Shown piece by piece: positions 1-3,000 of a stretch of 7,972 nt of DNA (the first letter of the stretch is position 1; each line of letters begins with the position of its first letter). The position numbers were made by a program. The stretch spans positions 1 through 7,972 of the IMG/VR virus record IMGVR_UViG_2671180884_000020. One strand, given 5' to 3'. Source of the stretch: a virus (taxonomy: Duplodnaviria; Heunggongvirae; Uroviricota; Caudoviricetes).

Positions 1-3000
1 ACAGCCGTGTGCATGTTGTGGAAAGCCAGCTGATGATCCGCATCATCTGATTGGTCACGGCCAGGGTGGTATGGGGACAAAAGCGCATGATCTCTTTGTG
101 TTGCCTTTGTGCAGAAAACACCATGACGAACTGCATGTGGATACCGTGGCATTTGAAGAGAAGTATGGTTCCCAACTGGAGCTGATATTTCGTTTTATCG
201 ATCGCGCACTGGCGATTGGTGTGCTGTCCTGATTTTGTGGAGAAAGTTGATGCGTGATATTCAGATGGTTCTTGAACGCTGGGGGGCATGGGCGGCAAGT
301 GGTAACACCGGGGTGGACTATTCTCCGATAGCTGCTGGATTTAAAGGCCTTTTACCATCCACCGCTAAACCTCGCCCGGCCTGCAGCGATGATGACGGCC
401 TTATCATCGAAAACTGCCTTACGCGCCTGAAGAAGAAAAAACCGGACGAGTATTCGCTGCTGGTAGCTCATTATCTGCTGCGCATATCAAAAAGGCAGAT
501 TGCCAGAACAAGAAAGAAGAGCGAAAAGGCAATACGAATTGAGATGCAGATTGCTGAAGGATTTATTGACGGATGTCTGTCGATGCTGGGTGTAAGGCTG
601 GAGATGGACGACTGGCTGCCCAAAAAAGTAAAAAATGATTAGCGCGGTCCGCAAAAAGTATGTCAGTATGTTAAGAGTGGTTACTACGCCACACAACTTA
701 AACCCGCCGCCTGGCGGGTTTTTTATGACTGAAATCGCATCAGTACAGTAAACGTGCTGGTGGTGGTGAATACCGGTCTTTCAGCTTGCTGGCTTTTTCG
801 ACAAGAGTTATTGGTGTGTCACGTTAACCGGAAAAGGGAAAAAGACATGCTAAAACAGCAGGATATGACAGAAACCGCCAGAGTGGTGTTTAATGAATTA
901 AGTGCCACCGAACCGGCGACAGTCGGGGAGATTGCGCAGAATACTTACCTTTCACGCGAACGCTGCCAGTTAATACTGACCCAGCTGGTTATGGCGGGTC
1001 TGGCAGACTATCAGTTCGGTTGTTACAGACGCCTTCCGCAGTGAAGGCTTTTTTATTTGTGGTAAATGGGCGGCTGGTGGGTGTGGTGGTTGTTGCTTTC
1101 CCGTTGCTGAAAAAGAAAGCATCAGGCGATTAGCAGGGTATCAGTTACCCGTTGAAATTTTTAAATACCTCACAATTCAGGCGGTTGACTGTTGTCTGGT
1201 TTGCGGGGAGTTTGTTAAAAGAAACTGGCATGGTGAATCCCCCTGTGCGGAGGGGCAATCAGCAACTGGTGTTTTGTCACCGACCCTTATCCTTTCTGTG
1301 CGGGTTCAGGTGCTGATACTGAACTCACCGGGAGGCACCCGGCACCATGCAATGGCACATAGCGCCACTCTCCAGCCCCTCTCCGGAGGGGCTTTCTTAT
1401 GGACAAAAAAAGCCCGCGCTGGGAGACGCGGGCGGCAAGGAATAAACAACAAAACGTGAAGTAATATTTCAGCTGGCGAATAATATCCGACAGTAATCAC
1501 TCTGCGCAATAGCGCGGCCTTTTTCGTATTGCGGGCTGTAGTCTTCCTCCTGCCATTGTCCTGTAACTTCCGGACTTCAGCCCGTTCCCTCATCTGACTC
1601 ACAACATTATCCCGACCGGGAGGATTCATGACATTTAAACACTATGACGTGGTCAGGGCGGCGTCGCCGTCAGACCTTGCGGAGCGACTGACACAAAAAC
1701 TGAAGGAGGGGTGGCAGCCATTTGGCAGTCCGGTGGCCATCACGCCCTATACCCTGATGCAGGCCATTGCGGCGGAAGGTGATGTCACCACACCGGTGGT
1801 GGTGCAACCGTCGGGTGATGGTGGCGCTGTTATCAGCACCACCAGCGAACCGGAATATTACTTTGTCATTGCGCTGGCCGGGCAGTCCAACTCGATGTCT
1901 TTTGGCGAGGGGCTGCCGCTGCCGGATACGTATGATCGTCCTGACCCGCGTATTAAGCAACTGGCGCGTCGCAGCACGGTGACACCGGGCGGTGCGGCCT
2001 GTGCATATAACGACATTATTCCTGCAGACCATTGTCTGCATGATGTGCAGGACGTGAGTAATCTGAATCACCCGAAAGCAGACCTCAATAAAGGGCAGTA
2101 TGGCTGTGTGGGGCATGCCCTGCATGTGGCCAAAAAACTGCTGCCGTTTATGCCTGCCCGTGCGGGGATCCTTCTTGTCCCGTGTGGACGTGGCGATTCG
2201 GGATTTACTGCGGGAGCAGAGGGCGCGTTTAATGAGGCGTCGGGTGCGACAGCGGGCTCTTCCCTGTGGGGGGTGGATAAACCGTTGTATCGTGACCTGG
2301 TCAGCAGAACGCGTGCAGCCCTGAAGAAAAATCCGAAAAACGTGCTGTTGTCGGTGATCTGGATGCAGGGGGAAAAAGATGTCAGTTCGGGGAGACATGC
2401 AGAGCACAATGCACTTTTTCTTGCCATGGTAAATAAATACCGTGCAGACCTGGCAGATATTGCAGACCAGTGTATTGGCGGGACAACGTCCGGCGTCCCG
2501 TGGATTTGCGGTGACACCACGTACGACTGGAAGGCGAAGTATGCAGTGCAGTATGAGGCGGTTTACGGAGGCTATAAAGGCAAGGCGGCGCAGAATATTC
2601 ACTTTGTGCCGTTGATGACGGATGAGCATGGTGCGAATGTGCCGACAAACGAGCCGTCAGAAGATCCGGACATTATCACGGCGGGATACTATGGTGCCGC
2701 GTCACGCAGTAATGGTAACTGGACGACAGCCGATCGTAAAACGCACTTCAGCTCCTGGGCGCGAAGAGGCATTGTTTCAGATCGGCTGGCAGGAGAGATA
2801 CTGGTGCGAGCCGGGCGTTTGCTGCCGTTCCTGAGCGGGCAGTCTGCACCGCTGGCGACCACGCCAGCCTCCACGGGGGATGCACAGTCTGGCTCTGCGG
2901 GTCCGACGCAACAGCAGGGTGCAGGTACTTCTGCAGGCGGTCATACTGAAGCCGTAACAAGAATGGTGGCCGGATATGATGCGAACAGTGGCAGTGGTGT

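Follow-up and report, generated by a model that had tools for sequence, protein, structure and literature searches.

What occupies the roughly 570 nt at 1059-1627, between the Q antiterminator gene and the nanS-p-like esterase gene of this phage, is the question raised by the window (the whole stretch of DNA that was analysed, 7,972 nt of the Caudoviricetes record IMGVR_UViG_2671180884_000020). The preliminary description had called it a non-coding gap and offered three readings, namely an alternative late promoter with a leader RNA, a scar of lost cargo, or an insulator against antisense transcription. Our analysis points, with a probability of roughly 0.88, to a "dyad", a pair of small-RNA genes in convergent orientation, both equipped with transcription signals of their own. 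Such a dyad is a standard feature of lambdoid and Shiga-toxin prophages, and neither a new late promoter nor mere debris. Convergent sRNA pairs in prophage late regions are already known, and nothing here is new in kind: dyads have been described by Tree et al. (2014) and by Sy & Tree (2021), the former reporting convergent sRNA genes downstream of PR' in Sp3, 4, 5, 9, 10, 11, 15 and 17. For the dyad in the window, the support consists of family membership, anatomy, conservation and synteny. As such, the conspicuous gap in this lambdoid late region would be explained by two RNA genes that standard annotation has missed, and an stx-negative phage would share its regulatory RNA cargo with the Shiga-toxin phages.

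Protein genes could be ruled out for the gap. None of its ORFs, at 1152-1316 (+), 1274-1459 (+) and 1306-1629 (-), had a Pfam match, and the last one, which encodes 107 aa and spans both terminators, loses its frame through a 1-nt indel in Sakai Sp4 and Sp15, whose copies are otherwise near-identical. ARAGORN found no tRNA in the gap. The earlier statement that no credible ORF or tRNA is present thus holds for proteins and tRNAs, but it overlooks that the region holds two RNA genes. RefSeq has no RNA feature annotated in the gap, an identical genome copy shows only a pseudo "hypothetical protein" over the STnc100 part, and the sampled copies of the minus-strand module are without any annotation. 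Terminator-like sites are enriched between 600 and 2000, with 5 observed against 1.7 +/- 1.3 in shuffled sequences. The two hairpins that had been noticed at 1374-1400 and 1405-1433 are indeed present and are kept in relatives, and the idea that transcription arrives from both sides was borne out; the hairpins form the 3' ends of the convergent sRNA genes.

The left edge of the gap and its plus-strand gene comprise the following features:

1075-1133, plus strand: 3' remnant of a DUF3927 small-protein gene, recognised by DNA alignment to an annotated relative.
1161-1176, plus strand: candidate upstream -10 elements for a long form of the RNA, TTAAAT/TAAATA at 1161-1167 (start ~1173) and CACAAT at 1171-1176 (start ~1183).
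1185-1190, plus strand: exact TTGACT, as noted earlier, with the partner -10 GAGTTT and a start at ~1220.
1192-1221, plus strand: core-proximal promoter candidate, with -35 TTGTCT at 1192-1197, an 18-nt spacer, TG at 1213-1214 and -10 TAAAAG at 1216-1221 (start ~G1228).
1199-1404, plus strand: STnc100-family sRNA gene (Rfam RF02076; EcOnc05/06/13/27, sRNA103; relative of PasD).
1228-1350, plus strand: structured multi-helix core, in which P1 is formed by 1228-1235 paired with 1343-1350.
1351-1373, plus strand: linker between core and terminator, which varies among copies while core and terminator are kept.
1374-1400, plus strand: intrinsic terminator of the STnc100-type sRNA, with a stem at 1374-1393 (8 bp, 6 G-C pairs, loop of 4) followed by the tail TTCTTAT.

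The covariance-model scan that had been suggested for this gap identified the plus-strand gene, with a match to STnc100 of 143.2 bits (gathering threshold 47; E 1.6e-32) covering model positions 1-206 of 206. Its core folds more stably than expected (z-score -3.48), none of 200 shuffles being as stable, and is closed by a GCAUGGUG/CACCAUGC stem. Among 84 sequences, covariation was seen in P1, P2 and P4: 61 have G-C and 16 have A-U as the outer P1 pair, P2 shows changes from C-G to U-A or A-U, and four pairs of P4 carry 1, 39, 24 and 35 double changes. P5 is invariant across the same sequences, a figure that is biased by the 22-mer used for collecting the loci. This invariant 22-mer, CACCGGGAGGCACCCGGCACCA, lies inside the core at 1326-1347 and occurs exactly in 110 loci of many Enterobacterales genera. 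The hairpin at 1374-1400 aligns with the terminator of the Rfam model, and its U-tract (UUCUUAU) is weak. By analogy with PasD, whose seed UGUGAG falls in the equivalent segment, the linker at 1351-1373 is likely to be the target-pairing region of the plus-strand RNA.

The published probes for EcOnc05, 06, 13 and 27 map to STnc100 copies, and 1199-1404 is near-identical to the Sakai Sp4 copy, the site of the EcOnc05 probe, for which an Hfq-CRAC peak and a northern signal of ~222 nt have been reported. The copies in Sp5, Sp17 and Sp3 likewise give discrete Hfq-associated RNAs. Reports on what the STnc100 family does are limited to effects of sRNA103 overexpression on fimZ and espA and to an in-silico match to stx2B.

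The 5' end of the plus-strand RNA lies somewhere between ~1173 and 1228. A start at 1228 is favoured by a conserved promoter position, the -10 ending 7-9 nt before TGGTG in 28/50 family members having a good sigma-70 match, and by the mapped 5' end of EPEC PasD2 (741157), which is the equivalent G of GCAUGGUG and hence G1228 of the window. However, the EcOnc13 probe targets a segment 40 to 6 nt ahead of the structured core, so that the RNA should start further upstream than ~1220, and this position together with EHEC northern sizes of 177-247 nt requires a start at or upstream of ~1191-1199, which weakens the view that the start is necessarily at 1228. With a start at ~1173, the RNA would measure 213 nt in Sp4 and 232 nt in Sp5, the latter being seen at ~235/247 nt in northerns; the -35 partners of the candidate -10 elements at 1161-1176 are poor. 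As RpoN is mentioned for Salmonella STnc100 in a ChIP-exo paper, the sequence around 1198-1241 was also read by eye for a sigma-54 promoter, and no GG-N10-GC match was seen.

It is unlikely that the TTGACT at 1185-1190 serves as a -35. It occurs at chance level: the window has 3 copies where 3.8 are expected, and 3 were reached in 150 of 200 shuffles. The combination TTGACT-17-GAGTTT scores 7, compared with 8.5 for the neighbouring pair, whose -35, at the family-conserved position, is seven bases further downstream. The VT1-Sakai, E. albertii, Shigella and E. ruysiae copies of the element lack TTGACT, and the start at ~1220 that it would give fits none of the mapped 5' ends and is incompatible with the EcOnc13 probe.

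The opposite gene and the sequence up to the esterase comprise:

1405-1599, minus strand: sRNA of the Hfq-dependent EcOnc08/21/42 type (the unnamed EPEC E2348C_1409.E2348C_1408.IGR), assigned through the probe, Hfq-CRAC and EPEC mapping of homologues.
1405-1433, minus strand: its intrinsic terminator, with a stem at 1433-1412 (7 G-C pairs), then TTTTTTT ending at 1405.
1434-1440, minus strand: seed CCUUGCC, immediately 5' of the terminator stem.
1502-1525, plus strand: second terminator-like hairpin with a T-run, upstream of the esterase and kept even in 933W; on the minus strand it is an internal hairpin of the sRNA.
1606-1634, minus strand: promoter candidate, with -35 ATGTCA at 1634-1629, a 17-nt spacer and -10 GATAAT at 1611-1606 (start ~1599).

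The published 35-nt northern probe for EcOnc08/21/42 is exactly window 1479-1513, and 1400-1627 is near-identical to Sakai Sp4, Sp15 and EPEC PP6. Hfq-CRAC peaks of the EHEC homologues map to ~1407-1479 and 1485-1571, with EcOnc42 at ~1489-1571; since the coordinates of Tree et al. refer to an older Sakai assembly (offset ~+135 at Sp5 and ~0 at Sp4), a placement of EcOnc42 at 1624-1706, inside the esterase gene, was ruled out. The 182-nt EPEC RNA maps to ~1405-1587, and the terminator sequence is that of the EPEC sRNA 3' end in Fig. S5 of PMC8550237. The CCUUGCC at 1440-1434 is the exact complement of GGCAAGG, one of the two forms of the RIL-seq target motif of the EPEC homologue (GGCAAGG or GGCAGGG, e.g. 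in cfa, tir, emrA and pcm), whose chimeras include the cfa 5'UTR (767), the dppA 5'UTR (197), emrA, tir and espC. The seed reads CCUUGCC in both the window and the EPEC genome copy; the figure of the EPEC paper prints CUUGCG.

This RNA probably starts near 1599. The promoter candidate at 1606-1634, which overlaps the ribosome-binding site and start codon of the esterase, is the only site in 600-2000 that passed the promoter scan, and it also ranked first in a further promoter scoring; its GATAAT is kept in all relatives, and the predicted start is 12 nt from the coverage-based 5' end in EPEC (~1587). At ~271 nt, the EHEC northern signal is longer than the 195 nt predicted here and than the EPEC estimate, and would need a start at ~1676, where no promoter-like site was found. 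The body of the RNA is no more structured than shuffles (z = -0.72), which is usual for base-pairing sRNAs yet adds no independent support. Membership in AsxR (RF02703) or AgvB (RF02702) was ruled out, as neither covariance model matched the window at E <= 1, while the same search in 933W gave 88.1 bits for AsxR and 40.9 bits for AgvB; alignment against 933W shows the cassette replaced between ~1400 and 1500.

The dyad is widespread. The gap as a whole is matched in 2799 of 5426 complete E. coli genomes; 992 of the complete genomes carry the minus-strand module, as do 54 phage records. Sakai Sp4 is near-identical to the window over 1158-1720, STnc100 with a convergent minus-strand sRNA is also present in VT1-Sakai and an Stx2a phage, and in 933W an STnc100 of 207.7 bits directly abuts AsxR (88 bits). 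A weak Esr41-like match at 3616-3690 (-) was considered as PasA or EcOnc52 and ruled out for its poor alignment.

The dyad sits inside the late operon of a lambdoid phage, with Q and the late promoter close to Q on its upstream side, and the nanS-p-like esterase gene and the lysis genes on its downstream side. Judging from the near-identical EHEC and EPEC copies, both RNAs may be transcribed in the lysogen, each under its own promoter, associate with Hfq and target host and virulence mRNAs in trans; homologous RNAs contact the cfa, dppA, tir and espC mRNAs in EPEC. On induction, Q-modified RNA polymerase from the Q-proximal promoter would be expected, from what Q antitermination does, to read through the plus-strand terminators to the esterase and lysis genes. 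Here we speculate that the dyad might also be a cis gate on the late operon, beyond its two trans-acting sRNAs, which we regard as unlikely. Over ~195 nt directly ahead of the esterase, the late-transcript leader is a perfect complement of the minus-strand RNA, and the same leader contains the highly structured STnc100 core. This antisense overlap, together with the promoter over the esterase start and the structured core, means that pairing, transcriptional interference or RNase III cleavage could tune the esterase and lysis genes. If true, their expression would be tuned after Q antitermination, and the gate would account for dyads always lying between late promoter and lysis genes, a position that the field calls unexplained.

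That the hairpin pair is primarily a bidirectional insulator, against read-through out of the early and late regions on one side and antisense transcription out of the esterase on the other, with the RNAs as by-products without function, appears very improbable. The two strong hairpins do stand back to back, 4 nt apart, two more plus-strand terminators, at 1031-1054 and 1502-1525, hint that the late genes are insulated in several layers, and a published review calls the reason for the dyad arrangement unclear. However, the EHEC and EPEC homologues of these RNAs bind Hfq and have many specific RIL-seq partners, AsxR and AgvB in the same minus-strand slot have proven trans targets, and the plus-strand core keeps its invariant 22-mer across genera, independently of a phage late operon. 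The insulator as such was thus not borne out, the hairpins being the 3' ends of two sRNA genes.

Slightly less probable still is the reading of the whole gap as a functionless scar of lost tRNA/stx-type cargo, with the hairpins as leftovers. It draws on the left edge, where the DUF3927 3' fragment at 1075-1133 and a mosaic junction at ~1078-1088 lie exactly at the relatives' cargo site. The window matches an Stx2a phage (L003) up to ~1088 and an E. coli ST69 genome (L119) from ~1078, the two sharing GGTGGGTGT, and the sequence joined there precedes methylase-tRNA-stx2 cargo in Stx2a phages. In the ST69 genome, an annotated DUF3927 CDS ends at the equivalent of window 1133, and the remnant frame reads ...VGVVVVAFPLLKKKASGD followed by a stop codon; the EPEC DUF3927 protein gave no match to the window by tblastn. 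The proposed alignment against stx-positive relatives thus revealed a junction at the left edge, but also that 1158-1627 is kept nearly unchanged downstream of stx in Stx phages. The gap lies where Stx phages carry tRNAs and stx only at ~1078-1088, and a scar is credible for the leftmost ~80 nt and not for the rest: the tRNA and stx cargo enters ahead of the dyad and does not displace it. In addition, the RNAs encoded there are known in EHEC and EPEC from northern blots, Hfq-CRAC and RIL-seq, and the covariation in the STnc100 core likewise argues against a functionless remnant.

Least probable of all is that TTGACT at 1185-1190 is the -35 of pR' and the ~200-nt RNA a Q-utilisation leader ending at a tR'-like terminator, like lambda 6S RNA. 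In its favour, the TTGACT is exact and is also the -35 of lambda pR', a terminator follows ~190-210 nt downstream and the element lies downstream of a Q gene. Against it, the -10 is poor, several copies lack TTGACT, and in many genera the element is found at a distance from any Q gene. In the window, 543 nt separate the Q stop codon from this site, and the interval includes an ORF and two terminators, one at 703-724, a hairpin read directly from the sequence after being missed by the consensus scan, and one at 1031-1054. Stx2a phages whose Q is 91% identical over window 235-860 carry a methylase, three tRNAs and stx2AB between Q and the element. The order is the same in 933W and VT1-Sakai, in which the annotation places pR', qut and tR' immediately behind Q. 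With tRNAs and stx2 upstream of the dyad in Stx2 phages of the same Q type, the late promoter must adjoin Q and not 1185; synteny thus already largely refutes 1185 as an alternative late-promoter site. Of the leader proposal, what stands is a plus-strand RNA of ~200 nt ending at 1374-1400.

The dyad of convergent sRNA genes can be compared with several known systems. With STnc100/EcOnc sRNAs the plus-strand RNA shares the multi-helix core, the terminator, the slot upstream of a nanS-p-type esterase and the convergent minus-strand sRNA; it differs from the Sp4 copy (EcOnc05) in a variable arm (~1255-1300) that is longer by 15 nt, and it directly follows the DUF3927 remnant, in place of tRNAs or stx. 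PasD1 and PasD2 of EPEC E2348/69 (Pearl Mizrahi 2021; Zhu, Shabalina & Storz 2026 preprint), Hfq-dependent RNAs of 172-173 nt, occupy the same slot (Q ... sRNA ... esterase) and have the same core architecture, whereas PasD2 reaches only 41.4 bits on the STnc100 model, under its threshold, and has another linker with its own seed and an upstream promoter TTGACT-18-TAAAAA.

For the minus-strand RNA, EcOnc08/21/42 are practically identical over 1405-1627, with the same terminator and seed, are convergent with STnc100 upstream of the esterase, and show no substantive difference. The anti-sRNAs AsxR and AgvB resemble it in being Hfq-bound and prophage-encoded and in abutting the STnc100 terminator in the same minus-strand slot and orientation, and its homologue contacts the dppA 5'UTR, an mRNA de-repressed by AgvB. 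They differ in length (51-60 nt versus ~180-270 nt), terminator and body. Finally, the lambda pR'-qut-tR' 6S RNA and StxS are likewise short terminated plus-strand RNAs downstream of Q that are read through by Q-modified polymerase; in contrast, the window RNA is not adjacent to Q, has the relatives' cargo upstream, possesses a conserved structure of its own and is found outside phages. In the window, the lambda 6S unit probably corresponds to the Q-proximal unit that ends in the 703-724 hairpin.

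The window represents the late-regulatory and lysis region of a lambdoid phage and is organized as follows:

235-642, Q antiterminator of the PF06530 type
847-1044, small ORF between Q and the dyad of convergent sRNA genes (annotated; RefSeq hypothetical protein)
1031-1054, terminator of the small ORF, placed after ORF 847-1044
1045-1627, gap under study
1628-3610, DUF1737-SASA-DUF6645 esterase of the nanS-p type, 660 aa
3796-4260, DUF826 protein
4336-4551, P21-type holin
4556-5089, lysozyme

The small ORF has a TrmB-like winged-helix match that is weak (19 bits, short of the cutoff), and it is kept in Stx2a phages of the same Q type. 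The gap itself has full-identity (100%) counterparts in Escherichia phage PhiR5_1 and in a prophage of E. coli 2012EL-2448. The preliminary description had reported neither a tRNA nor a credible ORF there, and indeed a tRNA search of the gap found none and its ORFs are without family support; the longest, of 107 aa on the minus strand, was rejected as a gene, as it crosses both terminators and near-identical relatives carry a frameshift in it. The convergent terminators were likewise confirmed, on the plus strand as a hairpin at 1374-1393 with the tail TTCTTAT and on the minus strand as a hairpin at 1433-1412 followed by TTTTTTT to the end at 1405. Both hairpins are kept in relatives, and terminator-like sites in 600-2000 are above chance (5 versus 1.7 expected). 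The TTGACT is present at 1185-1190, while the motif is not significantly enriched in the window (3 copies versus 3.8 expected).

On the plus strand, the covariance-model scan that had been proposed for structured RNAs returned a full-length match to STnc100 (RF02076) at 1199-1404, with 143.2 bits against a threshold of 47 and an E value of 1.6e-32 in Rfam. For segment 1228-1401, folding gives a multi-helix core and the terminator, with a stability far above that of shuffled sequences (z = -3.48); when 84 distinct cores were aligned, covariation was seen in P2, P4 and the closing stem P1. With one genome searched per species, 110 loci from many Enterobacterales genera contained an exact copy of the 22-mer CACCGGGAGGCACCCGGCACCA (window 1326-1347). 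The copies carry a variable stretch 3' of the core, followed in many by an intrinsic terminator, which is the common order of scaffold, seed and terminator. Cores with the invariant 22-mer often lie where no phage late region is obvious; in loci of Klebsiella, Kosakonia and Enterobacter, the core precedes a KdgM-family porin gene by ~100-165 nt (Pfam E 1e-12, N-terminus), and some loci, e.g. L027, L049 and L072, hold two copies a few hundred bases apart.

Two candidate 5' ends may be considered for this RNA. The best sigma-70 match ends 7-9 nt ahead of the core in 28 of 50 family members, and at that position the window reads TTGTCT-18-(TG)-TAAAAG, with a predicted start near G1228, the equivalent of the G at which the 5' end of PasD2 was mapped. 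The other candidate is an upstream start at ~1173-1183: the EcOnc13 probe is placed ahead of the core, at 40 to 6 nt from it, and the EHEC northern sizes of ~177, 187, 222 and 235/247 nt are larger than the 158-174 nt that a start at 1228 would give and fit a start near 1173-1183, from the -10-like TTAAAT/TAAATA or CACAAT. With either start the TTGACT is misplaced, being within the transcript or 7 nt ahead of the -35 element, and the copies in VT1-Sakai, E. albertii, Shigella and E. ruysiae lack it.

The opposite-strand partner varies among relatives. STnc100 (207.7 bits) and AsxR (88.1 bits) directly adjoin each other on opposite strands in 933W, whereas the Rfam scan gave no covariance-model match to AsxR or AgvB in the window, where the slot holds a different cassette, the same as in VT1-Sakai (Sp15), an Stx2a phage, Sakai Sp4 and EPEC PP6. 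The EcOnc08/21/42 northern probe of Tree et al. is identical to window 1479-1513 and therefore detects the minus-strand RNA, and their Hfq-CRAC peaks map to ~1407-1479 and ~1485-1571 after correction for assembly version. The EcOnc coordinates given by Tree et al. 2014 are those of an earlier Sakai assembly, offset from NC_002695.2 by ~+135 bp at Sp5 and ~0 at Sp4, and probably also by about +135 bp at Sp15; the offset was verified with AsxR and the EcOnc05 probe, and a placement of EcOnc42 inside the esterase gene was discarded as an artefact of naive mapping. The 182-nt RNA E2348C_1409.E2348C_1408.IGR, given as a new sRNA in EPEC RIL-seq with homologues named EcOnc08/21/42, maps to window 1405 to ~1587; its partners include the 5'UTRs of cfa (767 chimeras) and dppA (197), emrA, tir and espC. 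Directly ahead of the terminator stem, CCUUGCC (1440-1434) is the exact complement of the target motif GGCAAGG. The sole consensus promoter in 600-2000, ATGTCA (1634-1629) and GATAAT (1611-1606) with a 17-nt spacer on the minus strand, would place the start near 1599 and give a 195-nt RNA. Among 5426 complete E. coli genomes, 992 carry module 1401-1500, as do 54 phage records, with no RNA annotation on it among the matches listed. The minus-strand RNA might also act in cis on the late transcript, being antisense to the leader of the esterase gene and having a promoter that overlaps its start signals, which we regard as unlikely.

Several further observations concern this slot. In EPEC PP6 (L117 ~800-900) an ISEc13 insertion has deprived the STnc100 copy of its promoter and of the initial ~20 nt of its core, and the convergent minus-strand sRNA is intact and detected by RIL-seq; the genes of the dyad can therefore be expressed independently. 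In E. coli ST69 (L119 1540-1875) the minus-strand slot behind STnc100 is filled by the anti-adapter gene iraM in place of an sRNA, and the slot thus takes cargo as varied as AsxR, AgvB, the EcOnc08 type and iraM. Within the minus-strand sRNA body, a plus-strand terminator-like hairpin at 1502-1525 (CTGCGC-AATA-GCGCGG, then CCTTTTTCG) is kept even in 933W, whose adjoining cassette differs, and may be an added barrier ahead of the esterase gene. Directly after the esterase stop codon lies an sRNA-like unit with a strong terminator (3616-3690, minus strand), with weak Esr41 similarity (23-31 bits versus a threshold of 102), also seen at L002 6255-6331 and in an Stx2a phage (L003 6415-6491). Although it occupies the slot of PasA (EPEC) and EcOnc52 (EHEC), it does not align to PasA and that identity was rejected.

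The suggestion that the gap is a scar of lost cargo holds for ~1059-1135 only. Alignment with stx-positive and stx-negative relatives revealed a mosaic junction at ~1078-1088: the window up to ~1088 follows the Stx2a phage sequence preceding the methylase-tRNA-stx2 block, and from ~1078 it follows a DUF3927 gene at its 3' end; in an stx-negative relative this stands after the tRNAs and before STnc100.

A late promoter at the TTGACT of 1185 is contradicted by the Stx2a relatives. Expression of the stx genes and tRNAs requires Q read-through. Stx2a phages that share this Q type and the sequence next to it (91% identity over window 235-860) have a methylase, three tRNAs and stx2AB between the Q-proximal segment and the dyad, and hence the late promoter must be Q-proximal; in 933W and VT1-Sakai, of another Q type, pR', qut and tR' are annotated directly after Q and the dyad follows stx. 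Judged from its sequence, segment 643-727 after the Q stop codon probably holds the real late promoter and its first terminator, with an extended -10-like TGtTAAGAG (669-677) and a strong hairpin, CCCGCC-GCCT-GGCGGG then TTTTTT (703-724), that the consensus terminator scan missed. Its predicted short RNA contains CACACAAC, resembling the GcvB-target-like motif of AgvB, and its opposite strand has a weak STnc370 match (29.8 bits, Rfam). By the Q antitermination mechanism, polymerase modified at the Q-proximal site would ignore the terminators at 703-724, 1031-1054, 1374-1400 and 1502-1525, and this read-through would allow expression of the esterase and lysis genes.

Family membership, anatomy, conservation and synteny of the dyad are established by the present analysis. 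Given the near-identical copies, both RNAs would be made in lysogens, each from its own promoter, and would bind Hfq, the plus-strand RNA pairing with host and virulence mRNAs through its linker and the minus-strand RNA through CCUUGCC. Published counterparts of the plus-strand RNA are several: the EcOnc27 (Sp5) and EcOnc05 (Sp4) probes of Tree et al. 2014 map onto the STnc100 copies of the 933W/Sp5 and Sp4 loci, the EcOnc13 probe maps onto the Sp15 copy, with its Hfq peak listed in Sp3, and the EcOnc06 probe (Sp17) equals the variable arm of the Sp4 copy with one base different. EcOnc27 is sRNA103 of EDL933, PasD1 and PasD2 of EPEC are recognised structural homologues of the STnc100 family, and STnc100 directly downstream of stx2B was already noted in two 2025 papers. 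As such, the gap is a further copy of an arrangement already known, the 'dyad of Hfq-binding sRNAs' (Tree et al. 2014; Sy & Tree 2021).
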